Source of the DNA: an uncultured Bacteriovoracaceae bacterium
GTDB lineage: Bacteria > Bdellovibrionota > Bacteriovoracia > Bacteriovoracales > Bacteriovoracaceae
DNA length: 27,580 nucleotides
Assembly: GCA_964012805.1 (NCBI GenBank)
Contig: CAXGUD010000046.1
Span: 1-27,580, forward strand
Reading direction: 5' to 3'
The translations under genes and the position numbers were made by a program. This document shows, piece by piece, positions 6,960 through 23,398 of the stretch. Within the stretch, counting starts at the first letter, position 1, and each line of letters opens with the position of its first letter. Below the pieces are notes generated by a model. It was not told where the DNA came from. It searched no databases and worked only from the letters and a program-made list of their open reading frames with translations.

Positions 6960-9302
6960 TTAACCAAAAACAAAACCAATTTCATTTTCATTTTTGAGGT
7001 GAATTTTTATAGTTCCACCCTTTTCAAGATTCCCAAAAAGGACTTCTTTCGAAAGTGGACGTTTGATTTTTTCATCTATTAGTCGGCTTATTGGCCTAGC
7101 ACCCATTTTCGGATCATATCCATTTTCGGCCAACCATCTTTTGACCTGAGTCTCGACATTTAATTCAATTCCCTTTTGAGATAGCTTTTCTTCAATTTCT
7201 AAAAGAAATTTGTCGACGATCTTTATTATAAATTCAGGAGTTAACTTATTAAAATGTATGACACTATCCAAGCGGTTTCTAAATTCAGGTGAAAAGAAGT
7301 TCTTAATAACCTTATCTCTTTTTGAGCTTAAACCAACGGAGTTTCCATTGTTTAGACCAATGGAGCCCGAATCCATATCCTTTGCTCCCGCATTGGTTGT
7401 CATAATCAAAATAACATTTCTGAAGTCTGTTGAGCGGCCCTGAGAATCTGTCAAGATTCCTCTGTCCATGACCTGAAGTAAAATATTAAATAGATCTGGA
7501 TGAGCCTTTTCAATTTCATCAAGAAGAAGGACGCAGTGTGGACTCCTATGAATTGTGTCGGTAAGGAGCCCACCCCGGTCATAACCGACATAACCTGGAG
7601 GAGCTCCGATAAGTTTTGCAACAGAATGCTTCTCCATATATTCAGACATATCAAAGCATTCAAAATGAATTCCCAAACTAAGAGCTAATTGTTTAGAAAG
7701 CTCAGTCTTCCCAACCCCAGTAGGTCCTGCAAAAAGAAAGCTTCCCATTGGTTTTTCATTACTTCCAAGGCCCGATCTCGACATCAAAATTGAGTCAGAT
7801 ATGGAGTCTATTGCTTCATTTTGCCCATATATAAGTAATTTAAGACTTGCATTAAGTCTTTTTAATTTGTTTTTATCATCGCCAGCAACTGATTGCTTTG
7901 GAACCCTTGCTAAAGCAGAAATTGTATTTTCAACGTCATTAATAGTTATATTGACCCTTTTTCTCTTTTTATCTAGAAGCTGAATCGCTGCCCCTGCTTC
8001 ATCGATGACATCAATGGCTTTATCTGGCAATTTTCTGTCTGAAATAAATTTTTCAGATAAGTCTACTGCTGATTTTAAAACAGTATTTGAATACTTCACG
8101 CCATGGTGGTCTTCAAATTTATTTTTTAGCCCCTGGAGAATCTTGAGCGTTTCTTCATTGCTTGGCTCTTTAATATCAACTTTTTGAAACCTTCTGGTGA
8201 AAGCATGATCCTTTTCCACAAACTTCCTATACTCATCAAAAGTTGTACTTCCCATGCATCTTAAATCACCCGAGTTTAAAGCTGGCTTAAGAAGGTTCGA
8301 AGCATCCATACTTCCACTACCAGTAGAACCCGCTCCCATGACGGTATGAATTTCATCAATAAAAAGAAGTGTATCTTCATTGTTTTCTTTATTTTTTTTC
8401 CTTAAGCCATCAACAACACCTTTTACCCTCTCTTCAAAGTCACCTCTAAATTTTGCTCCAGCAAGTAAAGCTCCCATATCTAAAGAATAAATCACTGTAT
8501 TCTTTAAAGCATCTGGTACCTTCCCCTCAATAATTGACCAAGCTAAACCTTCTGCAATAGCTGTTTTCCCAACCCCTGCTTCACCAACCAAAATAGGGTT
8601 ATTTTTTCTTCGCCTACATAAAATTTGTGAAATTCTATGCATTTCCTCTTTTCTTCCAATAATTGGGTCAATTCTATTTTTTTTCGCCAACTCATTTAGA
8701 TTGAAAGTAAATTTATCTAAAAAACTACCATCTTTTGGACTTAAACCCGCTTCTCCTTCTTCAACCTTTTCCTTAATTCCTTCATTAACTGGTCCGTCCG
8801 CTCCATGAGCAATATATTTAACAACAGAGAATCTCGTCACACCCTGCTTTTCTACCGTGTAAAGGGCAAAACTTTCCTTTTCTTGGAAAAGAGAAACCAA
8901 CACATTAATTGCCTTAATGCTATCTTTTTGTGATGACTGAACATGAATCGCTGCTCTTTGAAAGACTCTATGAATAGATAAACTTATTTCAGGTTGATAT
9001 TTAATTCCTTTTCGCTTCGCCAATTCTTTTAATTCTTCTGAGTTGAATTGTTTTTCGGCAAGTTCCTGAATTTGGGTTTCACTCAAAATACTAAAGTTTT
9101 CATTATTCGATAAAAACTCTTCTAAATCTCTTTGAATATCTTCGACCTTACCTCCACAACTCTCAATAGTTTCTCTTACGTAAGAGTCATCCAAGAGAGA
9201 TAACAGTAACATTTCTAAGTTTAGATATTCATGTTTAAGGTCATTTGCTTTTTTAATCGCGTGATTAAAGATTTCTTCTAGTTTTTGACTCATCATTGGC
9301 AT
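6960..9302 (-). CDS. clpA: ATP-dependent Clp protease ATP-binding subunit ClpA
   Basis: Two AAA modules (GEAGVGKT, GPTGVGKT), LIGAPPGYVG, IGL ClpP-docking loop, no M-domain; downstream of clpS. Confidence 0.97.
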   Translation of the reverse strand: MPMMSQKLEEIFNHAIKKANDLKHEYLNLEMLLLSLLDDSYVRETIESCGGKVEDIQRDLEEFLSNNENFSILSETQIQELAEKQFNSEELKELAKRKGIKYQPEISLSIHRVFQRAAIHVQSSQKDSIKAINVLVSLFQEKESFALYTVEKQGVTRFSVVKYIAHGADGPVNEGIKEKVEEGEAGLSPKDGSFLDKFTFNLNELAKKNRIDPIIGRKEEMHRISQILCRRRKNNPILVGEAGVGKTAIAEGLAWSIIEGKVPDALKNTVIYSLDMGALLAGAKFRGDFEERVKGVVDGLRKKNKENNEDTLLFIDEIHTVMGAGSTGSGSMDASNLLKPALNSGDLRCMGSTTFDEYRKFVEKDHAFTRRFQKVDIKEPSNEETLKILQGLKNKFEDHHGVKYSNTVLKSAVDLSEKFISDRKLPDKAIDVIDEAGAAIQLLDKKRKRVNITINDVENTISALARVPKQSVAGDDKNKLKRLNASLKLLIYGQNEAIDSISDSILMSRSGLGSNEKPMGSFLFAGPTGVGKTELSKQLALSLGIHFECFDMSEYMEKHSVAKLIGAPPGYVGYDRGGLLTDTIHRSPHCVLLLDEIEKAHPDLFNILLQVMDRGILTDSQGRSTDFRNVILIMTTNAGAKDMDSGSIGLNNGNSVGLSSKRDKVIKNFFSPEFRNRLDSVIHFNKLTPEFIIKIVDKFLLEIEEKLSQKGIELNVETQVKRWLAENGYDPKMGARPISRLIDEKIKRPLSKEVLFGNLEKGGTIKIHLKNENEIGFVFG

Positions 9303-9703
9303 TATTCCGGTTCAAAAGTGCATCTTAGGGGATGACCATTTTTTTTAGACATTTGGTGAACTTTAGCTGTTTTGGACTCAGCTATTTCGTGAGTATAAAC
9401 CCCACAAACACCAACACCACTGTGGTGAACTTTAAGCATAATCTCTTGAGCTTCCTCTAGAGTTTTAGAAAAGCAACTTTGAAGAACGTAGATGACAAAT
9501 TCCATTGTTGTATAGTCATCATTATGGAGGAGGACCTTGAAAAGCTTCGGCTTTTTAGGTTGAAGCTTTACAGGGTTTTTCGTAAGAACGTCTCCTTGTC
9601 CTTCCCCGTCATTTTCCTGTTCCATTTTTATTACAGAAAAATTGACCTCCTGTCCAAATTCAACATTTTTTTCTCGAAATAAGTCCCTTAAAGAGTAAAT
9701 CAT
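9302..9703 (-). CDS. clpS: Clp protease adaptor ClpS
   Basis: KVLLHNDDYTTMEFV, VHHSGVGVCG, HPLRC; stop overlaps the clpA start by 1 nt. The true start may be the later Met (MEQEND). Confidence 0.97.
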   Translation of the reverse strand: MIYSLRDLFREKNVEFGQEVNFSVIKMEQENDGEGQGDVLTKNPVKLQPKKPKLFKVLLHNDDYTTMEFVIYVLQSCFSKTLEEAQEIMLKVHHSGVGVCGVYTHEIAESKTAKVHQMSKKNGHPLRCTFEPE

Positions 9704-10349: not shown

Positions 10350-10742
10350 TTAGCTTGCTTTTTCCCAACCTTCCTTCAAAGGAAAGTGATCTTCTTCATA
10401 ATCGGTCCAAGCATTATCTGGATCTAATATCACCGGTTTATTATTCTTACGGTGCAGCTTATTTTTCATTTTCTCTTTCTTTTTTATTAGCTGACTCTCA
10501 AGCTTATAAATCGCCTTGTCCAATGATTTGTACAGACTATCTGATTTACCACTAGCGTGATAATCAAAAGTGGGGCCAATCAACTCAACATCTGCATAGT
10601 GTTGCTGATTTTTCACGTAGCAGGTCCATTTAACCTGACATTTTCCATCCAAATACTTTTCAATTTTTTGTGACTTTTCCCTTATTCTATCATCAAGAGC
10701 TGGAGTGTGTTGCAGGTGTTTAAAAGAGATCTTTACTTTCAT
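10350..10742 (-). CDS. hpf: Ribosome hibernation factor (HPF/RaiA)
   Basis: ISFKHLQHTPALD, SLYKSLDKAIYKLESQL; directly downstream of rpoN. Confidence 0.92.
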   Translation of the reverse strand: MKVKISFKHLQHTPALDDRIREKSQKIEKYLDGKCQVKWTCYVKNQQHYADVELIGPTFDYHASGKSDSLYKSLDKAIYKLESQLIKKKEKMKNKLHRKNNKPVILDPDNAWTDYEEDHFPLKEGWEKAS

Positions 10743-10797
10743 TCGTTCGACTCCCTATTAAATTGTTAATAAAACAAGATAAAGTTTACCTTTCTCT

Positions 10798-12288
10798 TTA
10801 TTTTATTTTCCTTTTAGATGAAGATGGATAGCCCATCACTTCTCTATATTTTGCTACAGTTCTTCTCGCTATTTTTATATTTTCTCTTGAGAGTAATTCA
10901 CCAATTTTTTGGTCAGAAAGAGGTCTCTTGGGATTTTCATTTTCCAAAAGGTTTTTTATTTTGATCTTTAAAACTTCGCTAGATATTTCCTCCCCCCCTG
11001 TCTTTCCACCTCCAAGGCCTGCATTGAAGAAAAACTTGAGTTCAAAAACACCAATGGGAGAATGAAGATATTTATTTGTTGTAACACGGGAAACCGTCGA
11101 CTCATGCATTCCAATTTCCTCAGCAATATTCCTAAGCACCATAGGTTTTAAATATTTAGGTCCTTTCCTAAAAAAATCTTGTTGTTTCCGCACAATCGCC
11201 TTAGCAACTTTAATAATTGTATTCTGCCTAGTTTGGATTGATTTTATCAACCAAAGAGCCGACTTAAGCTTTTCCTGAACATATTCTTTTGCCTCTTCAC
11301 TTCCCTTTAAATCACTACTATTTTGGGAAGATTGAAGCATCTCTTTGTAGTGCTTTGAAATACGAAGTCGAGGAATCCCTTCATCATTTACAACCACAGA
11401 AAACTCTCCACCAATCTCTTTAACGAAAATATCAGGTATTACGTATTGAGTATCGGTTGAAGAAACCAATCTACCAGGTTTAGGGTGGAACCTTTTAAGG
11501 ACCTGTCTCATTTCTGATATGAACTCTTCTGAAACCCCAGCTTCTTTTGCTATTTTTTGATAATTTTTATTTTGTAGATCGACTAAATGATCCTTAATGA
11601 TTTTTTCCAAAAGAGGAGTTCTTTCCTCCATAATAACTGCTTGAGCCAACAAGCAATCTTTTAAGTCCCTGGCTCCACAACCATTTGGGTCAAACCTTTG
11701 AATCATTCTAAGGACTTCTAAAGCTGTTTCTTCGCTGCATGAAACTTGGCAAACAATTTCGTCAAAAGGGATTGAAAGGTACCCATCATCATTAATATTT
11801 CCAATGATAAGTGATGCCAACTCAAACTCTTCTTCACTTAAAACTTCCATCCTTAATTGCAGCATAAGGTGGTCAGCTAAATCTCTCGAACCGGATACAA
11901 AATTTTCATAATTTGGTCCCTCTTCACCATCAAAGCTTCCAACACTTGAGCCAATTTCTCCCTTAGAGTTGTCAAAAGAATCGACGTACTTGCTCCAATC
12001 AAAATGATCTTCTTGAGTTGCCATAATCGGTTTTTCATCAAAATCTTCAGACTTTGTTTCGCGGTTCTGGTTCTCCATATTTGAAGCTATATACTCTGAA
12101 TTATCTGTTTCGTTTTGAGAGTTTCCGGAGTTATATTCTTCTAGTAAAGGGTTTTCAACCATCTCTTCAGAGATCGCATTTTGCATTTCCATATGGCTCA
12201 AAGTGAGAAGCTTAATAGCATGCTGAAGCTGCGGGGTCATCATAAGACCCTGAGATTGCTTCAAACTTTGGTTTATCTTTATTGCCAT
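10798..12288 (-). CDS. rpoN: RNA polymerase sigma-54 factor
   Basis: MTPQLQHAIKLL region I, HESTVSRVT, RpoN box ARRTVAKYRE. Confidence 0.98.
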   Translation of the reverse strand: MAIKINQSLKQSQGLMMTPQLQHAIKLLTLSHMEMQNAISEEMVENPLLEEYNSGNSQNETDNSEYIASNMENQNRETKSEDFDEKPIMATQEDHFDWSKYVDSFDNSKGEIGSSVGSFDGEEGPNYENFVSGSRDLADHLMLQLRMEVLSEEEFELASLIIGNINDDGYLSIPFDEIVCQVSCSEETALEVLRMIQRFDPNGCGARDLKDCLLAQAVIMEERTPLLEKIIKDHLVDLQNKNYQKIAKEAGVSEEFISEMRQVLKRFHPKPGRLVSSTDTQYVIPDIFVKEIGGEFSVVVNDEGIPRLRISKHYKEMLQSSQNSSDLKGSEEAKEYVQEKLKSALWLIKSIQTRQNTIIKVAKAIVRKQQDFFRKGPKYLKPMVLRNIAEEIGMHESTVSRVTTNKYLHSPIGVFELKFFFNAGLGGGKTGGEEISSEVLKIKIKNLLENENPKRPLSDQKIGELLSRENIKIARRTVAKYREVMGYPSSSKRKIK

Positions 12289-12328
12289 CTTTCAAAATAT
12301 CCTTTTCTCTTTAACTTCGAAGTAAAGT

Positions 12329-13069
12329 CTACATTTTAAATTCATCACCCAAATAAAATTTTCTAGCTATATCACTTTCAATTATTTCATTTGGTCTTCC
12401 ATCTAATAAAATTTCGCCATTATTTAAAAGATAAGCTCTATCAACGATTCCAAGTGTTTCTCTTACATTATGGTCCGTAATCAAAATACCTATATTTTTT
12501 TTCTTTAATCCTCTAATTATATTTTGGATTTCACTTACAGCTAGAGGATCAACACCTGCAAAAGGTTCATCCAGCAAAATAAATTTTGGTTTCAAAGCCA
12601 AAACTCTTGCAATCTCAACCCTTCTTCTTTCTCCCCCAGATAAAGTCCTTCCTTTTTCTTTTCTCACATGGTCCAAGCTAAACTCTTGAATGAGGTCTTC
12701 CATCAAGAGCTTTTTTTTAGACCTTGAAATATTCATCAACTCTAAAACTGAGTAAATATTAGCTTCAACTGAGAGCTCTCTAAAAATTGAAGCTTCTTGT
12801 GGTAAATAACCTATTCCCTTTGTGGCCCTTTTGTGAATTGGCTGCTCAGTAATATTTTCTTGACCTAAAAATATGGTTCCATCATCAGTCTTAACTAAAC
12901 CAACCATCATATAAAAACAGGTTGTTTTGCCAGCTCCGTTAGGTCCAAGCAATCCTACAACCTCACCTTCTTCTAACGAAACGCCAACCCCATTAACAAC
13001 AGTTCTTCCACCGTAGGTCTTTTTTAATCTGGATGACTTTAAACAAATTTTCGACATATCTTCAAACAC
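12329..13069 (-). CDS. lptB: LPS export ABC transporter ATPase
   Basis: GPNGAGKTT, GYLPQEASIFR, LSGGERRRVEIAR, ITDHNVRETL, YLG..F; upstream of rpoN. Confidence 0.97.
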   Translation of the reverse strand: MFEDMSKICLKSSRLKKTYGGRTVVNGVGVSLEEGEVVGLLGPNGAGKTTCFYMMVGLVKTDDGTIFLGQENITEQPIHKRATKGIGYLPQEASIFRELSVEANIYSVLELMNISRSKKKLLMEDLIQEFSLDHVRKEKGRTLSGGERRRVEIARVLALKPKFILLDEPFAGVDPLAVSEIQNIIRGLKKKNIGILITDHNVRETLGIVDRAYLLNNGEILLDGRPNEIIESDIARKFYLGDEFKM

Positions 13070-13093
13070 TACCTTTACAATTTATATATTTTT

Positions 13094-14086
13094 TTATTTT
13101 AATTTCAAATTTGAATTAGCATCTATAATCTCAAGGACCTCATTATTCCACCTTAAAATAATCTTATTTCCAATAATTGCATCCTGACCCTGCAGTACTT
13201 TGGGATATCCAGTTAAAACAATCAGTGAATTTTTTGGATATCCCTCTAATTTCTCCGAAAAAGCCTTTCTAATAACTTTCTTACCCTTCATTTTCAAAAC
13301 TTCTCTGACCTTTACATCATCATGTAAAACAAAATAATTAAGGTCCTTGTTGTAGTTTTCTAAAAAAATATCACCGCGTTGGGCTTTCCCCTCAAAGTTT
13401 CTATATTTCAAAGAAACCTTACCATTAAGTTTCGCTAAATTTTTTCTTGAAAAAAAGGTTAACTTATTAGATTTGAAGGACAAACTGTCTTCATAAATCC
13501 TCTTTCTTTTTACCTTACCTGCCACATTACCAAGGTATAGGTGTATATTTTCTTTATTTTTAAAATAAGAAACAAATTTGTTCGCATTTATAAAAACTCT
13601 ATCTCCTGTTTTCCTAGCGTATGTTCTCGTCTTAACTTTAGTGGTAGCTTCAAATCTCATCGAATCAAACGAATACTTTAACCTCTCAGAATTAAGTCTC
13701 GTATTTTTTGATTTAACAAGGACTGAATCTTCTAAGAAAAGAACATTTTCTTTTTCATTAAGAAAACCAGATTCTGCTTTATATGATACTTTGCTTCCTT
13801 GCTTTTGAAAGATCTTACCTTTGGGCTTTAAAAACTTAATAAATAAGCCATAATCTAATTCTATAAACTCAGCTTCAAGCAAGAAAGGACGTTGTCCTTG
13901 ATGTTGGTAATAGATCGAGTTGCGGAAAAAACTTTTCTCAACAGATTCCCTTCTCGACACACTTGTTTGAGTCATCATGGACGGGCTTACCCTCGGATTA
14001 TTAATGACTCCCGTCATTGTAATACCTAAAAGCGTTAAAACAAAGCCAATTACAATTAATTTATTCTTTAAATCCATCATGCTCAA
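13094..14086 (-). CDS. lptC: LPS transport periplasmic protein, LptC-like with LptA/OstA-like C-terminal part
   Basis: Single N-terminal TM, beta-jellyroll-like strands, C-terminal LIVLTGYPKVLQGQDAIIGNKI resembling LptA; occupies the lptC-lptA position. Confidence 0.75.
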   Translation of the reverse strand: MSMMDLKNKLIVIGFVLTLLGITMTGVINNPRVSPSMMTQTSVSRRESVEKSFFRNSIYYQHQGQRPFLLEAEFIELDYGLFIKFLKPKGKIFQKQGSKVSYKAESGFLNEKENVLFLEDSVLVKSKNTRLNSERLKYSFDSMRFEATTKVKTRTYARKTGDRVFINANKFVSYFKNKENIHLYLGNVAGKVKRKRIYEDSLSFKSNKLTFFSRKNLAKLNGKVSLKYRNFEGKAQRGDIFLENYNKDLNYFVLHDDVKVREVLKMKGKKVIRKAFSEKLEGYPKNSLIVLTGYPKVLQGQDAIIGNKIILRWNNEVLEIIDANSNLKLK

Positions 14087-14274
14087 TTAAATACCTTGCA
14101 TTACATGCAGACCAGCAACAGATCCATTTTATAAAGCTTACTTTACTTATAAAATTTATTTATGTTAGTGTCTTCTACCAATATTTGAAAATCAATACAT
14201 ATTATTTTCTGAGGCCCTTCCACCGGTCCTTTAAAGAGGTAAGAAAATCGATTTTTGTAAAAAGGAAGGCTGTC

Positions 14275-16959
14275 TTGTCCTCTTTAAAAGTGCTCCAAAA
14301 CATTCTCAATAATGGCGGCAAATTGACCCCCATGATGGATCAATACTTCAGTATTAAGAAAAACTATCCTGAAACTCTGCTTTTTTTTAGAATGGGGGAC
14401 TTTTACGAGCTTTTCTTTGATGATGCAGAAAAAGCATCAAAATTACTCAACATAACACTTACCCAACGTGGCAAGATAGGTGATGTCAAAATTCCAATGG
14501 CCGGTATACCTCATCATGCAGCAAGTGCTTATATCGATCGAATAACTGGGCAAGGTCTGAGAGTTGCCATATGTGAACAAACCCAAGATGCAAAAGATGC
14601 CGTGGGCATTGTAAAGAGGGCCGTCACCCAGGTTGCCACACCAGCAATACCTTATGACTTCGATAAAGCCTTAGGAAGAGAGAATCACTTCATTTCTTCT
14701 GCTGCTCAAATTGGAAACCGTTTTTTTCTGGCTTCCATTGACTTTACTAGTGGATCTTTCTTGGGCTCTATTTTTAATACGTTTGAGGAGCTTTTTGAAA
14801 AGGTCCAAAAAATATCTCCTAAAGAGTTTCTTTCTTCAATGGGTCAATGGGATCACTTCCCAATTTTAGATGAATATTTAGGCGCACAGGGAATTCTAAA
14901 AACCCATCTAAGCGAGGAATACTTTTTTCAAAAAAATACAGCGGTATACATTGAAAAACTTATTCCTAGCTTTAAAAATGATAAAACTTTAAACCGAGAG
15001 AAGGAGATCTTTTCTCCTTTAGGTGCTTTATCATACTACGTCTCCTCAACTCAAAATCAGGACCAGTTTATCCACCTCCACCCTTTTCGGCTTGATAGTG
15101 ACAGAGAAACTTTAAGGATGACCCTTGCGACTCTTCAGGGACTAGAAATTTTTCCAAAATCCAGGGACAACTATAAAGAATCTCTCTTAGGCTTTTTTGA
15201 TAAAACAAAAACTGCACTTGGTTCAAGGTATCTTAAGCACCTCTTTTTAAATCCTTTAACTGATCCTACTTTGATTAGAAATAGGCAAAAAATTATTTCT
15301 GAATTTATTAATGCACCTGACCTACTAGAATTTGTTAGAGAAGAGTTAAGCCCTGTTAGAGACCTTGAAAGAATCCTGGCAAAAGTTTCTACAAAGAAAG
15401 TTACTCCTAGTGATCTCATTAATATATCAAGAAGCATTACAACATATAAAAAACTCAAATTGAAATTAAAATCCTTTCCTAAAAAACTTTTAAAAACAAT
15501 TAATAGTAAAGACTTAGAGAAGCTTCAAAGTTTAGCTGAATCAATTGAAAAAGCCATCAATGATGAAATTGGGGCTTCATTAGATAAAGGAAACCTCATT
15601 AAAAGCGGTTTCAACAAAGAAAGAGATAAACTAGCTAAGCTTGCAAATAATTCAACTGATGAGTTATTGGCCCTTGAAAATAAGTATAGAAAAAAAACCG
15701 GCATTCTAAAACTTAAGTTAAAAACAAACAATATTGCAGGATACTTTATTGAAGTGTCTAAAAGTCATATAAATAAAGTACCAAAGAGTTTTCAAAGGAG
15801 ACAAACACTCGTCAACTCCGAAAGGTATACAACTGAGGAACTCATTGACTTTGAAAGAGGAATGATTACAGCGAAAGAGAAGCTCGAAAGGTTAGAAAAA
15901 ACTATTTTCAACGACCTCATTTGTGAACTATCCAATCAATCAAAATGCATTTTAAACTTAGCCAATTGTATAAGTGAACTTGATGTTTTTCAAAGTTTTG
16001 CCTGGAGTGCTCTTCAGGAAGGTTTTAGCTGTCCTCTTATTGAAGACAAAAAAATCTTAAAGATAAAAAATGGATGGCACCCGCTTATTAAAGCCCAACT
16101 CAAAGACGAATTTGTTTGCCATGATTTAAACCTTGATAAAAGCTCCTACTTTGGATTGATCACAGGTCCGAATATGGCAGGAAAAACGACTGTAATGAGA
16201 GAAGCTGCTATTATCCAGCATTTAACTCAGGTTGGAAGTTTTGTACCAGCAGAAAGTGCAGTCCTAGGTATTTGCGATACAATTTTTAGCCGCCTTGGAG
16301 CCAATGATAATATTCTAAAAGGACAATCTACTTTTATGGTAGAAATGTCAGAAACATCAGAAATTATACGCCACGCGACTGACAGGTCTCTCATCATTTT
16401 AGATGAAATTGGTCGCGGAACATCTACCTATGATGGTTTAAGTATTGCCTGGGCACTTGTTGAACACTTTTTAAAAAAAACAAAAGCCCTGACACTTTTT
16501 GCGACCCACTATCACGAACTTATTGATGTCGTTGAAAACCTAAAAGGTGGAAAAAACCTGACTGTAGAAACACTTAATCTTGATGGTGAAGTCCAGTTTC
16601 TTTACAAACTCATAGATGGCGGCGCTGCTCAAAGCTATGGAATTTATGTAGCAAAATTAGCTGGCCTACCTAAACAAGTACTTGAAAGATCTTCAGAACT
16701 TCTAGAAACATTTGAAAGTCATCAAGAAGTAAAAGCTCCTGAAGAGAAACCTCAAAAGTTAAAAATTGAAAAAGGCGTTGCTCCGAAACCAGGAACTCAG
16801 CTTTGCTTTTTCAACGATGAACAGGCCAATGAGGTTAAATTACCTAAACACCTTTCAAAAATTGAAGAGGAAATAAAGAAGCTTGATATCCTAACACTTA
16901 CTCCCCTAGATGCCTTCCAAAAGCTTCACAAATTAAAATCGTTTATGACTCTCCATTAA
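14275..16959 (+). CDS. mutS: DNA mismatch repair protein MutS
   Basis: TPMMDQY, FRMGDFYELF, TGPNMAGKT, STFMVEM, DEIGRGTST, FATHYHEL, C-terminal clamp motif QLCFF. Start placed at TTG 14275 (SD AGGAAGG); the ORF is open from 14185. Confidence 0.97.
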   Translation: MSSLKVLQNILNNGGKLTPMMDQYFSIKKNYPETLLFFRMGDFYELFFDDAEKASKLLNITLTQRGKIGDVKIPMAGIPHHAASAYIDRITGQGLRVAICEQTQDAKDAVGIVKRAVTQVATPAIPYDFDKALGRENHFISSAAQIGNRFFLASIDFTSGSFLGSIFNTFEELFEKVQKISPKEFLSSMGQWDHFPILDEYLGAQGILKTHLSEEYFFQKNTAVYIEKLIPSFKNDKTLNREKEIFSPLGALSYYVSSTQNQDQFIHLHPFRLDSDRETLRMTLATLQGLEIFPKSRDNYKESLLGFFDKTKTALGSRYLKHLFLNPLTDPTLIRNRQKIISEFINAPDLLEFVREELSPVRDLERILAKVSTKKVTPSDLINISRSITTYKKLKLKLKSFPKKLLKTINSKDLEKLQSLAESIEKAINDEIGASLDKGNLIKSGFNKERDKLAKLANNSTDELLALENKYRKKTGILKLKLKTNNIAGYFIEVSKSHINKVPKSFQRRQTLVNSERYTTEELIDFERGMITAKEKLERLEKTIFNDLICELSNQSKCILNLANCISELDVFQSFAWSALQEGFSCPLIEDKKILKIKNGWHPLIKAQLKDEFVCHDLNLDKSSYFGLITGPNMAGKTTVMREAAIIQHLTQVGSFVPAESAVLGICDTIFSRLGANDNILKGQSTFMVEMSETSEIIRHATDRSLIILDEIGRGTSTYDGLSIAWALVEHFLKKTKALTLFATHYHELIDVVENLKGGKNLTVETLNLDGEVQFLYKLIDGGAAQSYGIYVAKLAGLPKQVLERSSELLETFESHQEVKAPEEKPQKLKIEKGVAPKPGTQLCFFNDEQANEVKLPKHLSKIEEEIKKLDILTLTPLDAFQKLHKLKSFMTLH

Positions 16960-16975: not shown

Positions 16976-17003
16976 TCAAGTTTCCAAAACTTAATTCCGA
17001 AAA
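16976..17003 (+). promoter_or_regulatory. sigma28-like promoter for the RDD gene, probably leaderless
   Basis: TCAAG-N15-TCCGAAAA, then 8 nt to ATG; no SD. Confidence 0.55.
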
Positions 17004-17011
17004 ATTAGTTT

Positions 17012-17542
17012 ATGAGGAAAAGCAATTCTAGTTTTAATTTCAAAAATATACTCACAAAAAGAGTTGCCGCCTTTCTTATTGACCTAGGCTTAATTAAGTA
17101 CATTAACAAAGGGTTTGCCTTATCTTGGGAATCTTTTTTAAAAAGCTTTTTTATTTTACCACCTGAAATTTCACAAAAAATTGGTAACCTCTCAAAAAGT
17201 CTATCAATACTTATACTTCCTCTTATTTTTATTTCCTATTTCACATTCATGCACTTTCTAGGAAATGGAAAAACATTTGGTAAATTTATCTGCCAAATAA
17301 AAATAAAAGAAAATAACGGGGACGCTCCTAGTTTTATAAATTGTCTATTACGAAGCCTAGCCTATTCCCTATGCTTTTTTATTGGCCCCTTCCTTTTCTT
17401 GATCCCCTTCATTACAAAAGATGGCAAAGGAATACAAGACTGGGTTTCCAATACGGCGGTAACAGAAAGTACTAAATTAAAAAAAGAAGATATGCAAAAA
17501 GAAAGACAATTAGAACTTTTTGAAGAAGAGAGGGCCTCTTAA
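17012..17542 (+). CDS. RDD family membrane protein
   Basis: KRVAAFLID, GKTFGKFICQIKI, LLRS, QDWVSNTAV; hydrophilic tail ending QLELFEEERAS. Confidence 0.9.
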   Translation: MRKSNSSFNFKNILTKRVAAFLIDLGLIKYINKGFALSWESFLKSFFILPPEISQKIGNLSKSLSILILPLIFISYFTFMHFLGNGKTFGKFICQIKIKENNGDAPSFINCLLRSLAYSLCFFIGPFLFLIPFITKDGKGIQDWVSNTAVTESTKLKKEDMQKERQLELFEEERAS

Positions 17543-17551
17543 AAAAGGCCC
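17532..17551. terminator. Short hairpin between convergent RDD gene and aspS
   Basis: GGGCCT-N8-AGGCCC; pyrimidine run follows on the minus strand. Confidence 0.45.
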
Positions 17552-17560
17552 ATCACTAAA

Positions 17561-19360
17561 TCAACTTTTCTTATTTATCCAGTTAAAATGCAATTCCTCA
17601 GTTTGATCCTTTGATGGAGATGAGGGTGAGTTTGCCATCAAATCGGAAGCCGAAGTTGTTTTTGGAAAAGCGATAACGTCTCTTATACTGTCAGTTCCTG
17701 CTAACAACATGACAATTCTATCAAATCCAAAAGCAATACCTCCATGAGGAGGAGTTCCATATTGAAGGGCTTCAATAAAAAACCCAAATTGCCTCAAAGC
17801 TTCCTCTTCTGAAAACCCAAGGGCCTTAAACATATCGCTTTGAACACCTTGGTCGTGGATTCTTATAGATCCACCACCTAATTCATAGCCATTACAAACA
17901 ACATCATAAGCTTCAGCTAAAATATCTTTAAGAGGACCATTCTCATCATCAACTTTTCCAGACTTAAGCCACTCTAGATGCTCTTGTTTTGGCATAGTGA
18001 ATGGGTGATGCATGGATGTGTATCTTTTAGCTTTAGGGTTCCACTCTAAAAGAGGAAAATCATGAATCCAAAGGAAGCTATACCCTGGCCTTATAAGGTC
18101 AAATTTCTTTCCTAGAAAGCGCCTTACAGCATCAGCAGAGTTATGAACGACCATATCAGAAAGGTCAGCAAAGAACATCCAAACCCCATCTCCTTTTTCT
18201 AAGGATTCAAGCTTAGACATCATTTCATTATCTATAAACTTTGAAATCCCGCCACTTCTTTTTCCATCTTGGACCTTGAAAAAAGCGACTCCTTTTCCTC
18301 CATGAGGCTTCACAATATCAACAAAACCATCAAGGTCTTTACGGGATAAAGAACCTTTATCTGAGCCTAAAAACATTGCCTTAATAAGACCATTCTCACT
18401 TGATACTTTTTGAAAAGTTGCAAAGTTACTTTCTTTAAACAAAGAAGTTACATTGTAGTGAAAAAGGTCAAAACGATTATCTGGCTTATCGCTTCCATAT
18501 TTTTCTAAAGCTTCTTTATAAGTCATAGACTCTAATGAAAAATCATCAGCCATTGAAAATAATTTCTTCATTAATTTTGTGGCCAAAGCTTTTATAGAAT
18601 CGGTCGTAACAAAAGAGGCTTCTATATCTATCTGTGTGAACTCTGGTTGCCTATCGGCTCTTAAATCTTCATCTCTAAAACAGCGAGACATTTGAAAGTA
18701 TCGATCAGTACATCCAACCATTAGAAGCTGTTTTAGAGTCTGGGGAGACTGAGGTAGAGCATAAACCTGGCCTGGATGGACACGGCTTGGAACGATGTAG
18801 TCTCTCGCCCCTTCTGGCGTTGATTTATAAAGAATAGGAGTTTCTACTTCTACAAATTCTTCTCCCATCAAAACCTCTCTTACCTCAAGAGACTTTTTTG
18901 ACCTTAAAGCAAGAATATTTTGAAGCTTAGGACCCCTTAAATCCAAATATCTATACCTCAAGCGAAGATCTTCTGTAGCTTCTTTTGCACCTAGGGGTAA
19001 AAAAGGAAGCTTATCTTTATCAGAAATTGATAGAATTCGAAACTCGCTCACCTGAACTTCAACATAACCCGTATCCATTTTCTTGTTGATTGCTGGCTCA
19101 GGCCTTTTACAAACTTTCCCCTTAGCATAAACCACAGACTCTAAAGAGATATCTTTTAAAACTTGGAGGTCACCTTCATAGCTTGCAAAACCTAACTGAG
19201 TTAAACCATGCTTATCTCTCAAGTCGACAAAATGAAGTCCACCCAAGTTTCTATATTTATTTATCCATCCGCAAAGAGTTACTTCCTCTCCAACATTGCT
19301 ATCTCTCAATTGTCCACAGGTGTGAGTTCTCATGAGTCCTGGTAAATTATCCATTGCCAT
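17561..19360 (-). CDS. aspS: Aspartate--tRNA ligase
   Basis: RTHTCGQLR, RLRYRYLDLR, STPEGARDY, FRDEDLRADRQPEFTQID, PPHGGIAFGFDR, GAD insertion. Confidence 0.98.
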   Translation of the reverse strand: MAMDNLPGLMRTHTCGQLRDSNVGEEVTLCGWINKYRNLGGLHFVDLRDKHGLTQLGFASYEGDLQVLKDISLESVVYAKGKVCKRPEPAINKKMDTGYVEVQVSEFRILSISDKDKLPFLPLGAKEATEDLRLRYRYLDLRGPKLQNILALRSKKSLEVREVLMGEEFVEVETPILYKSTPEGARDYIVPSRVHPGQVYALPQSPQTLKQLLMVGCTDRYFQMSRCFRDEDLRADRQPEFTQIDIEASFVTTDSIKALATKLMKKLFSMADDFSLESMTYKEALEKYGSDKPDNRFDLFHYNVTSLFKESNFATFQKVSSENGLIKAMFLGSDKGSLSRKDLDGFVDIVKPHGGKGVAFFKVQDGKRSGGISKFIDNEMMSKLESLEKGDGVWMFFADLSDMVVHNSADAVRRFLGKKFDLIRPGYSFLWIHDFPLLEWNPKAKRYTSMHHPFTMPKQEHLEWLKSGKVDDENGPLKDILAEAYDVVCNGYELGGGSIRIHDQGVQSDMFKALGFSEEEALRQFGFFIEALQYGTPPHGGIAFGFDRIVMLLAGTDSIRDVIAFPKTTSASDLMANSPSSPSKDQTEELHFNWINKKS

Positions 19361-19389: not shown

Positions 19390-19965
19390 ATGCGTATTTA
19401 TATACATCAAATCACAAAGAAGCTCATTAAAAAAAGGAACTCAAAAAGCCTTTTAATGATAGCCGCATCCATTCTCTGTTTGACACTAACAAGTTGCACA
19501 AAGCAAACTCTTTTAGAACTCTTTAATAAAAGAGATCCTTTGGAGACTGCAAAGATTAAACTTCCCTCTGGAGAGGTTATTAGAGTGAAGCTTGCGCTTA
19601 CAGAGGAAGAAAAAACAAAAGGGCTTAGTGGAGTCTCTGAAAATCAATTTAAAAAAGATGAAGGACTTCTATTTTTTTATTCAAAAAGAGGAAGAAGGTC
19701 GTTTTGGATGCCTGATACCTATTTTCCATTGGACCTCTTTTTCTTAGATAAAAAGCTTAAAATCGTCGATATCGTTAGAAATCTCCCGAATCACCCGGGC
19801 TTCCAGGAGCCCCCTCCAATTCCTAGGGCCAGAACGGTATTCGCTTTCCATGTTCTTGAAATGAGAAGCGACTCTCATTTGGCAAAAAAGCTAAGCCATG
19901 GGGATCAACTTCAATGGCTTTCTTCTATTTCCCTTTCTGAAATAGAATCAAAAATTCGTCCTTAG
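19390..19965 (+). CDS. DUF192 family lipoprotein
   Basis: GLLFFY, SFWMPDTYFPLDLFFLD, HVLEM, GDQL; lipobox LTSC suggests the real start is ATG 19456. Confidence 0.88.
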   Translation: MRIYIHQITKKLIKKRNSKSLLMIAASILCLTLTSCTKQTLLELFNKRDPLETAKIKLPSGEVIRVKLALTEEEKTKGLSGVSENQFKKDEGLLFFYSKRGRRSFWMPDTYFPLDLFFLDKKLKIVDIVRNLPNHPGFQEPPPIPRARTVFAFHVLEMRSDSHLAKKLSHGDQLQWLSSISLSEIESKIRP

Positions 19966-20911
19966 AAATAAAGCCCAAATGGTCCCTAACCAACTTTTTT
20001 TGATGGAATTTGTTATTTTTGATTAGGTTAATTTTCCTTTTTAAATCCAACTTGTGATCGTGCAAGTATGATAGTTTTTGTACTTTTTTTTCATAGTTTT
20101 TTTTCTGAGAAAAATAATCCAACACACCACGATCTGATAGAACAAGTCTTCCCAAAAGAAGAAAACAAACTAACCAAGATAACTTTTTAAAAAGCCTTAA
20201 CCATTTCTCCTTTGGGCCCAAAAAACTTTTTATTCCATCAATCCTTCTTTGAATAAATTCAGGAACCTTGAAAGTTTTTTTTTGCTGGTCTAAACGACCT
20301 GTCCGAGGTGGCCTGACAACTTCTTTTTTCGCACCTTCAAGGCTATGCTTTTTTGGTATTTCCCTTGTTTGCTTCTCTCGCCGAAGATTTCCCTGTGTAG
20401 CTTCAGCTCTCCTTGGAGGAGGTGGAGATGGCGGCATTGACCTGTCTCTTGCTTGTTGTCTTTGGGTTGACCTCATGGGTCTTTTTGGTCTACTACTTCT
20501 TTGGGTTCTAGGAGGAGTTGCTTGATTATATGACCTCTCACGTGGAGGCTCTTCAAAATCTTCCTCTTCAAAATCATCTTCTTCATCATAAACATCGAAG
20601 TCATCAAAGTTTTCTACTTCTTCTAAAGTATCTCTAAGATGATCAGGGTGCTTTGAAGGCATGGCCGTAGGTGCATGCGAGGGTGATCTTCTTGGAGGAA
20701 TCCTCCTCTGAGGGACCTGCCGATTTTGCTCAACTCTGGCAGTTCTCTTTGGGTTTTCCCGTGGTGGAGGTGGAGTTATTATAGCTTGATTAGAAGGCTG
20801 AGGGTTTTTCTTTGCTCTTTTAGCTCTGTTTCTTTCTATAGCCTTCCTCAGCCTATCTCCACTTGGAGAGAGACTTCCAGGGCCATGAGATGTCCGTAGA
20901 GATTGTTCCAA
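19925..20911 (-). CDS. FtsB/DivIC-like septum formation initiator with long disordered N-terminus
   Basis: TM (WLVCFLLLGRLVLS), DRGVLDY, coiled coil, LVRDHLGFISKDEFLI matching the DivIC-type AR..LG....E motif; TTG start. Confidence 0.75.
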   Translation of the reverse strand: MEQSLRTSHGPGSLSPSGDRLRKAIERNRAKRAKKNPQPSNQAIITPPPPRENPKRTARVEQNRQVPQRRIPPRRSPSHAPTAMPSKHPDHLRDTLEEVENFDDFDVYDEEDDFEEEDFEEPPRERSYNQATPPRTQRSSRPKRPMRSTQRQQARDRSMPPSPPPPRRAEATQGNLRREKQTREIPKKHSLEGAKKEVVRPPRTGRLDQQKKTFKVPEFIQRRIDGIKSFLGPKEKWLRLFKKLSWLVCFLLLGRLVLSDRGVLDYFSQKKNYEKKVQKLSYLHDHKLDLKRKINLIKNNKFHQKKLVRDHLGFISKDEFLILFQKGK

Positions 20912-22720: not shown

Positions 22721-23398
22721 CTAAGAAGCTTTTTTAATTAGCCTATAGCCTTCGGAGTAAACGGACTTTATTGAAAATTCAGATTCTTTAATCTTTTTTC
22801 TTATTGTAGAGATATGGGTGTCTACAATTCTTTCGTTTACATCATGACCTTCTATTTTAATTAGATCTAAAATCATATTCCTCTTAACCACATCCCCTTT
22901 ATTTTGAGCAAGAGTCGTGAGGATCTTAAACTCGCTTGATGTAAGAGATACATGTGTGCCAGCAATTTTGACCTCTTGTCTTGAAAGATCTATTTGTAAG
23001 TTCTCCAAAGAAATAATTTCTCCCCTTTCACCAGTTAAATTGGAAAAAACGCCGTCGACAATAACTGACAATTCATAAGGTTCAAAAGGCTTTTCTATAT
23101 AATTTATAGCGCCTAATTTATAGCCAATTGACCGTGAGGGACTACCAACTTTTGCTGAAAGGAAAATTATTGGAATATTTTTAGAGTGATCTTTAAGTTT
23201 TAGCTCAGAGGCAATATTATAACCATCCATATCAGGTAGCATGATATCTAGAATCAACAGATCAGGGGAAAAGTTCTGTATTTCATTTAAACAACCTTTT
23301 CCGGTCGATTCCAGCTTTACCTCATAACTTTTTTTCAAGGTCTCACTAACTAATCGTCTAATATCTGGATTGTCATCAACAACAAGGATTTTTTTCAT
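22721..23398 (-). CDS. OmpR/PhoB family response regulator
   Basis: ILVVDD, LDIMLP, KPF, LTSSEFKIL, VDTHISTIRKKI, SVYSEGY. Confidence 0.95.
   Translation of the reverse strand: MKKILVVDDNPDIRRLVSETLKKSYEVKLESTGKGCLNEIQNFSPDLLILDIMLPDMDGYNIASELKLKDHSKNIPIIFLSAKVGSPSRSIGYKLGAINYIEKPFEPYELSVIVDGVFSNLTGERGEIISLENLQIDLSRQEVKIAGTHVSLTSSEFKILTTLAQNKGDVVKRNMILDLIKIEGHDVNERIVDTHISTIRKKIKESEFSIKSVYSEGYRLIKKAS

Follow-up and report, generated by a model that had tools for sequence, protein, structure and literature searches.

Short pentapeptides of the QL[S/D]LF type located near the C-termini of proteins bind the sliding clamp DnaN, and the same pocket of DnaN is used by the clamp loader and the polymerase. 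Known clamp motifs occur in pentamer and hexamer forms, with positions 1, 4 and 5 kept in the consensus (PMC3919608). The canonical cleft of DnaN is the place where Gln6 of Hda bonds to Met362 (PMC5397184). In Caulobacter, a clamp-binding inhibitor of replication, SocB, is removed by ClpXP via SocA (PMC7566177 and PMC5422525), and the ssrA tag is regarded as the model C-motif-1 degron (PMC12723719). The conserved site of RDD proteins is reported to face the cytoplasm (PMC12419801), and Na+(Li+,K+)/H+ antiport has been described for one representative from Halobacillus, with the residues R124, R129, D154 and D158 (PMC5996927). The attack-phase FliA consensus of Bdellovibrio bacteriovorus is TTAAG-N16-CCGATA, and according to Table S2 of the same paper transcription begins about 7 nt downstream of the box, which for at least 15 FliA rows is exactly the annotated start (PMC3627812). 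Literature searches on Bdellovibrio RDD proteins, RDD function and membrane clamp binders, with subscription journals mostly outside their scope, gave no link between RDD proteins and the clamp, judging from listings and abstracts; the initial annotation likewise knew of no RDD protein described as a clamp partner.

The window considered here, i.e., the whole analysed stretch of 27,580 nucleotides, belongs to an uncultured member of the Bacteriovoracaceae, a family of predatory bacteria, and contains an RDD gene located between mutS and aspS. The features of this locus are as follows.

14185..16959, + strand: mutS, the upstream neighbour, with the clamp motif QLCFF at 16798-16812 (sequence)
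16976..16980, + strand: putative -35 element TCAAG of the sigma28/FliA type (TTAA[A/G] enrichment at the offset; consensus from PMC3627812)
16997..17003, + strand: putative -10 element CCGAAAA, separated by 16 nt from the -35 element and by 8 nt from the ATG; the transcript is probably leaderless
17012..17542, + strand: RDD-family membrane protein of 176 aa with conserved R17, D24 and D143
17051..17449, + strand: RDD domain, residues 14-146 (Pfam PF06271, E 5.7e-16)
17507..17521, + strand: clamp-binding-type pentapeptide QLELF, residues 166-170 (sequence and motif statistics)
17532..17551, - strand: terminator-like hairpin that overlaps the RDD stop and is oriented for aspS (pattern match only)
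17534..17542, + strand: C-terminal AS and stop, a likely ClpXP C-terminal degron (AA/AS frequency in orthologues)
17561..19360, - strand: convergent gene downstream of the RDD gene, which we take to be aspS, encoding aspartyl-tRNA synthetase (ORF list; synteny)

QLELF, QLCFF of the directly adjoining MutS and the terminal AS were all confirmed at the positions given earlier. The start at 16976 was not retained as a coding start, because the reading frame opens at the ATG at 17012, just downstream of an in-frame stop, and 16976-16980 is occupied by TCAAG. The assignment to the RDD membrane proteins stands, with a PF06271 score of 59.5 bits against the Pfam gathering cut-off of 24.1. The closest relatives of MutS (56-73% identical) come from Bacteriovoracales/Bacteriovoracaceae. 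In the listed mutS ORF, about 45 codons separate the opening TTG from the MutS_I domain (window 14185-14330), and the true start is probably situated further downstream since the relatives align only from about residue 22-47. Pattern matching gave 3 terminator-like hairpins versus 1.3 in shuffles. An ordinary housekeeping context is formed by what are presumably a clpS-clpA-like pair (6960-9703) and an lptC/A-lptB-rpoN-hpf-like cluster (10350-14086), in the latter of which an LptC/LptD_N domain was found by family search. A DivIC/FtsB-like protein with a low-complexity Pro/Arg/acidic N-terminal extension of about 240 aa is encoded at 19925-20911.

The pattern of the RDD family, i.e., Arg before the first transmembrane helix, Asp in this helix and Asp near the C-terminus, is present in the protein. 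R17 and D24 are invariant and D143 occurs in at least 90% of 27 orthologues, with the Asp present in 135 of 150 proteins of a wider set; this core is fully conserved with or without the clamp-type motif. We infer that D143 is the equivalent of D154 of the Halobacillus antiporter, the Asp of the family. The AF2 model (mean pLDDT 88) contains helices 10-46 and 51-83 and a helical pair 108-134, corresponding to approximately three membrane helices, as well as strands 96-100 and 148-152, and hydropathy peaks are situated near residues 22, 74 and 126, the first one being weak. The tail appears in the model as a helix of lower confidence (pLDDT 65-79). The N-terminus carries five K/R and no D/E, and the membrane helices lie between R17 and D143. 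We infer from the model that the two strands pair, which would put the tail beside a K-rich loop and the basic N-terminus. A cytoplasmic tail, on which the earlier proposal had been made to depend, is thus likely, judging from the charge bias, the modelled secondary structure and PMC12419801.

The best fold match of the model (17012-17539) is the transmembrane domain of PEX2/PEX10/PEX12 (PDB 7t92; Z 10.8, rmsd 3.8 Å, 134 residues aligned), with the next unrelated match at Z 5.8; the Z of 10.8 falls below about 13, the level under which caution is advised for helical proteins. All three subunits also top the Foldseek list at E 0.14, and this search gave no match at E<=0.001. Sequence searches revealed no solved RDD relative and no match to PEX2/10/12, and the ESM Atlas yielded generic RDD clusters only. 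The likeness may serve as a lead for the poorly understood RDD family and would fit a theme of membrane protein quality control, as human FAM8A1, likewise an RDD protein, reportedly belongs to the HRD1 ERAD complex. RDD is not mentioned in the accessible part of the PEX paper PMC9279156.

The RDD protein matched 26 of 36 genomes of the same family, and the corresponding profile matched 176 of 236 genomes, some of these being weak paralogue matches. Two sets were used below, namely 107 genomic orthologues (27 copies from the protein search and 80 from the profile search, the latter picked for breadth across genera) and 149 proteins, most of them (nearly all) 50%-identity representatives, from which one match of 1920 aa and one with a tail shorter than 8 aa had been dropped. 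Within the short flanks fetched, at least 86 of the 107 orthologues adjoin mutS and/or aspS, and the divergent copies of genus g84 also follow mutS (3/3 fetched). Elsewhere in the phylum, RDD genes of other families have the same box and AA-like ends but are located at different loci (L234, L235, L236, L238 and L248). Five genomes of g117, by our guess probably Bdellovibrio, have an RDD match of about 200 aa with neither the box nor such a tail and with other neighbours, along with a second match of about 415 aa; no clear RDD orthologue was found in B. bacteriovorus, a member of another family. The tail, with a median length of 33 aa, is unalignable across orthologues, yet it has three recurrent features: an AA/AS-type end, the clamp-type motif and an N/K-V-I-x-L/F motif.

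As the gene itself has no Shine-Dalgarno sequence and TCAAG-N16-CCGAAAA (16976-17003) is only 8 nt away from the ATG, a leaderless mRNA is probable. The sigma28-like promoter proposed in the initial annotation is supported by its fit to the FliA consensus and by conservation of the box, since a CCGA box 4-9 nt before the start codon occurs in 71 of 107 orthologues and 42 of 54 genera, most often at 7 nt. As a background, a simple ORF model called 3871 genes in the own genome, and the same pattern precedes 105 of them. When 38 orthologue promoters, one per genus, were aligned on the box, TTAA[A/G] emerged 16 nt upstream. Box distances in the own genome peak at 7 nt (16 genes, or 25 at 5-9 nt), and none of these 25 genes has a Shine-Dalgarno sequence, compared with 1602 of the 3846 others. 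FliA is encoded in the same genome. The close box is absent in g20 (0/9), g79 and some other genera; a sigma70 scan gave no site upstream of the RDD gene, and a literature search for 'leaderless' with Bdellovibrio and FliA found no relevant paper. Judging from these sequence features, the RDD gene is probably leaderless and attack-phase specific. The RPKM of mutS in B. bacteriovorus is 0.36 in one column and 85 in another in Table S1 of Karunker, where no text 'RDD', 'dnaN' or 'clpX' occurs; in our reading, the columns are attack and growth phase, respectively. Since mutS is near zero in one of them, a separate promoter would decouple the RDD gene from mutS.

The 25 box genes of the own genome (G000), having CCGA[T/A]A 5-9 nt before the ATG and no Shine-Dalgarno sequence, are themselves probably leaderless sigma28 genes. 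Many of them look like large membrane sensors, and AA/AS ends are enriched among their products (4/25 vs 63/3846, p 0.0008).

The most conserved feature of the RDD tails is the terminal AA or AS, found in 107 of 149 representatives (2.2 in shuffles) and in 74 of 107 genomic orthologues; with VA/IA/VS/IS/SA added, the count rises to 133 of 149 (6 in shuffles), which gives a family-wide range of 72-89%. The tmRNA tags of the family likewise end in AA. ClpX is encoded in the own genome, where 67 of 3871 genes (1.7%) end in AA/AS, many of them apparently coding for signalling proteins. The earlier suggestion of a degron at the terminal AS has thus been strengthened by its conservation, and a ClpXP C-terminal degron is likely there, if AS is assumed to be as effective as AA. 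Among the 67 genes, C-termini of the KKAS/KKAA type recur in products that look like response regulators and kinases (in the window at 22721-23398 and 10350-10742), which suggests a family-wide ClpXP degron on signalling proteins.

The pentapeptide QLELF fits the QL[S/D]LF-like consensus. Its frequency was determined with a loose pattern (pentamer Q[LIMFV]x[LM]F, hexamer Q[LIMF]x[LM]x[LF]) and a strict one, Q[LI][SDE]LF. The loose motif is present in 41 of 149 tails, compared with a mean of 0.99 and a maximum of 6 in 1000 tail shuffles, i.e., about 40-fold over sequences of matched composition; the strict motif is present in 19 of 149 versus 0.05. A broad pattern increases the loose count to only 46/149. 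The 41 tails comprise 29 pentamers and 12 hexamers, and at least one (P0064) may be a chance match. Pentamers and Hda-type hexamers alternate at one place (QLDLF, QLELDF, QLTLPL), as they do among known clamp motifs. Among genomic copies, the motif was found in 36 of 107, from 15 of 54 genera, leaving out L014, the match of which falls in the membrane core. It is kept within certain genera (g16 7/7, g66 6/6, g12 4/4, g10 3/3) while the flanking residues vary, and is absent from others (g4 0/6, g84 0/3 and, by the patterns used, g20 0/9). On the tree it is clustered, but 11 (quick tree) to 23 gains or losses are needed, of which only 2 and 6 are required by branches with strong support.

Among the 1743 hydrophilic C-termini of the own genome, 10 (0.6%) match the loose pattern. 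Of the 148 membrane proteins with a hydrophilic tail, one has the motif, the RDD protein itself, and none of its four RDD paralogues in this genome has it. The pattern also marks the tails of two Y-family (IMS-family) polymerases, one with an identical QLELF, of DUF72 and of what we take to be a PolB-like protein. In MutS, used as a positive control, a clamp motif was recognised in 39 of 40 readable neighbours under a looser pattern. Four proteins with no Pfam family over the cut-off, L162 (G000:C12:25092-25262), L161, L160 and L163, have clamp-type tails (QLDLF, QLKLF, QLGLEF, QLKLF) and are possible further clamp partners.

It could be supposed that the motif arose by chance or is neutral, the tail being acidic and disordered, given that its distribution is patchy, the tails are rich in E/Q/L, and matches in a single genome do arise by chance, about 6 loose ones being expected among 3871 own-genome tails. 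The excess over shuffles largely refutes this explanation, and the retention within genera against a background of 0.6% also speaks against it; we regard it as very improbable. Several other ideas were rejected. PilM, with QLNLDF, was considered as a second carrier unrelated to DNA, but among its 24 readable orthologues (30 less 6 not extracted) just one keeps the motif. The motifs of MutS and RDD seemed mutually exclusive under a pattern unable to recognise QLxFF, which was an artefact. That the motif was copied from MutS is unlikely, MutS having mostly QLxF[FL] and RDD QLxLF. Mimicry of the tmRNA tag was dismissed, the own tag being devoid of the clamp-type motif. Family tags end in AA (18 of 20 called); no tag was obtained at 3 of the 23 loci, and two of the 20 look mis-framed, one of them containing QISLL.

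Summarizing these counts, the conservation of the motif across orthologues, which the initial annotation had named as a check, gives a mixed picture: the motif is non-random (41/149 vs about 1), but it is absent in about two thirds of the orthologues, including whole genera. Clamp binding cannot for this reason be the core function of the family. By sequence statistics, the motif is a non-random, lineage-specific extra. Because it is patchy (about 30%), but the AA/AS end is family-wide, the conserved core is probably a sigma28-driven and probably ClpXP-cleared RDD protein, to which clamp binding would be a lineage-specific addition.

Complex prediction, recommended earlier as a check, placed the tail in the canonical pocket. 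With the own-genome DnaN, residues 147-176 gave a complex score of 0.75 in three runs, the best control having 0.01; of 78 solved pairs, 51 attain the mark used, as do 2 of 108 mismatched ones. At least 80% of the contacts are shared between the runs (partner pLDDT 58-60), and only residues 163-170 touch DnaN, at 172-177, 247-252 and 365-371. The score indicates likeness and not binding, because many clamp-peptide structures have already been solved, and it may come from the memory of the predictor. In our opinion, binding of DnaN by the RDD tail in about a third of lineages is rather probable. Hda, another carrier of such a motif, was not found over the cut-off in the own genome.

Another reading of the same tail is that QLxLF is one of several interchangeable hydrophobic tethers for ClpX's N-terminal domain or for an adaptor, and not a ligand of DnaN, so that the tail would be purely a ClpXP module timing the removal of an attack-phase protein or bringing ClpXP to the membrane. 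In addition to the AA/AS-type ends, an N-VI-x-L motif is found in 39 of 149 N-terminal extensions (3.4 in shuffles), 23 of which fit [NK][VI][IV]xLxx[YFH] and resemble the ClpX tether of alphaproteobacterial SspB; no SspB was found in the own genome. In tails, N/K-V-I-x-L/F is present in 17 of 149, along with an IDI variant, and in some lineages an N/K-V-I-type motif replaces the Q motif at the same site before PEDP (KVTPLFPEDP vs QIELFPEDP). The two motifs co-occur less than expected (10/41 vs 52/108, Fisher p 0.009, uncorrected), but the association is not significant on phylogenetically independent pairs, and ten orthologues have both. Moreover, the Q motif is found in just 1 of 67 AA/AS-ending own-genome proteins, yet marks DNA polymerases; the Q and both clamp-motif lengths are conserved, and the tmRNA tags described above do not speak for a tether either. 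We consider this explanation, the main rival, rather unlikely.

Two side observations concern these motifs. L016, L018, L020, L023 and L025 are examples, from a clade devoid of the clamp motif, of RDD orthologues with an N-terminal N-V-I-x-L-x-x-Y/H motif, often accompanied by an I-D-I tail motif. A conserved block LFPEDP[VI], preceded by the Q motif or KVT[PSL], occurs in the tails of genera g4, g14, g16 and g81 (L006, L007, L052, L060-L063, L071, L079-L081, L103, L110).

If DnaN is the partner, the RDD protein may be an accessory, degradable, membrane-anchored brake on the start of replication in the attack phase; we prefer this reading tentatively, on the basis of the motif, the model and the promoter. 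The leaderless sigma28 transcript would lead to synthesis of the protein in the non-replicating attack phase, when the lack of a replisome would leave unloaded clamps with a free peptide pocket. The tail would fill the pocket of free DnaN at the membrane and compete there with the clamp loader and the polymerase. Since 14 of the 29 pentamers are situated at a distance of just 1-4 residues from the C-terminus, a bound clamp would also hide the degron. Inside the prey, sigma28 transcription would stop, and ClpXP would clear the protein, freeing the clamp. The function of the family-wide core would be separate and would not need the clamp. A stricter version, a developmental trap in which unloaded DnaN is held at the membrane, the degron is masked and proteolysis after prey entry licenses replication, appears doubtful.

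Several data count against the brake. The motif is absent from about 70% of RDD orthologues, compared with its presence in 39 of 40 MutS proteins. DnaN-GFP is diffuse and not membrane-bound in attack-phase B. bacteriovorus (PMC8445325 and PMC6606864), which argues against strong sequestration, although this species may lack the RDD gene. A membrane protein of low copy number may not be abundant enough for titration of the clamp, and the control of replication in obligate predators is believed to act at initiation (PMC6606864).

The relationship could also be reversed, with DnaN acting as the regulator: free clamp would shield the degron, and the membrane activity of the RDD protein, be it ion exchange, binding of lipids or ligands, or scaffolding, would last only while replication is off. 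The proximity of the motif to the C-terminus (no more than 4 residues in 14 of 29 pentamers), the R/D/D core conserved irrespective of the motif, the antiporter activity reported for an RDD protein (PMC5996927) and the presence of DnaN all through the attack phase of B. bacteriovorus (PMC6606864) are consistent with such a role. In 9 of 29 pentamers, however, the motif is 11-39 residues away from the end, too distant to mask the degron directly, and 8 of 41 motif tails have no AA-type end. This reading is compatible with that of an accessory brake, and taken on its own we consider it unlikely.

The locus is a candidate for the means by which predatory Bdellovibrionota refrain from replication during the hunt and switch it on inside the prey. 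Should clamp binding take place, an integral membrane protein would widen the set of DnaN partners and the RDD family would gain its first partner; should the trap exist, it would constitute a replication checkpoint anchored in the membrane and based on the RDD domain, with a fold perhaps related to the PEX2/10/12 retrotranslocon. Even without clamp binding, the locus would represent a conserved, sigma28-leaderless, degron-tagged attack-phase gene.

In comparison with known systems, the proposed logic of a clamp competitor under ClpXP control is shared with SocB of Caulobacter. SocB is a toxin requiring the SocA adaptor, whereas the RDD protein is embedded in the membrane, has a degron-like end of its own and would be developmental; instead of the two-gene socAB operon, mutS and the convergent aspS directly flank the RDD gene, with no partner ORF. 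With clamp-motif proteins (DnaE/PolC, Pol IV, MutS, Hda, DUF72), it shares QL[S/D/E]LF or QLxLxL/F in a flexible terminal segment, predicted to enter the same cleft, and differs from them in being an integral membrane protein with no DNA-processing domain and with the motif in about 30% of orthologues. The FliA regulon of B. bacteriovorus has the same geometry, TTAAG-N16-CCGATA, with many starts on the start codon (PMC3627812), whereas the promoter described here is deduced from sequence in another family. The RDD model resembles the transmembrane helical fold of PEX2/10/12; the RDD protein has no RING finger, and the likeness shows no function. Finally, YckC-like proteins and the Halobacillus antiporter have the same PF06271 domain, R/D/D residues and about three helices, to which the protein considered here adds a clamp-type tail, a degron-like end and a putative sigma28 promoter.
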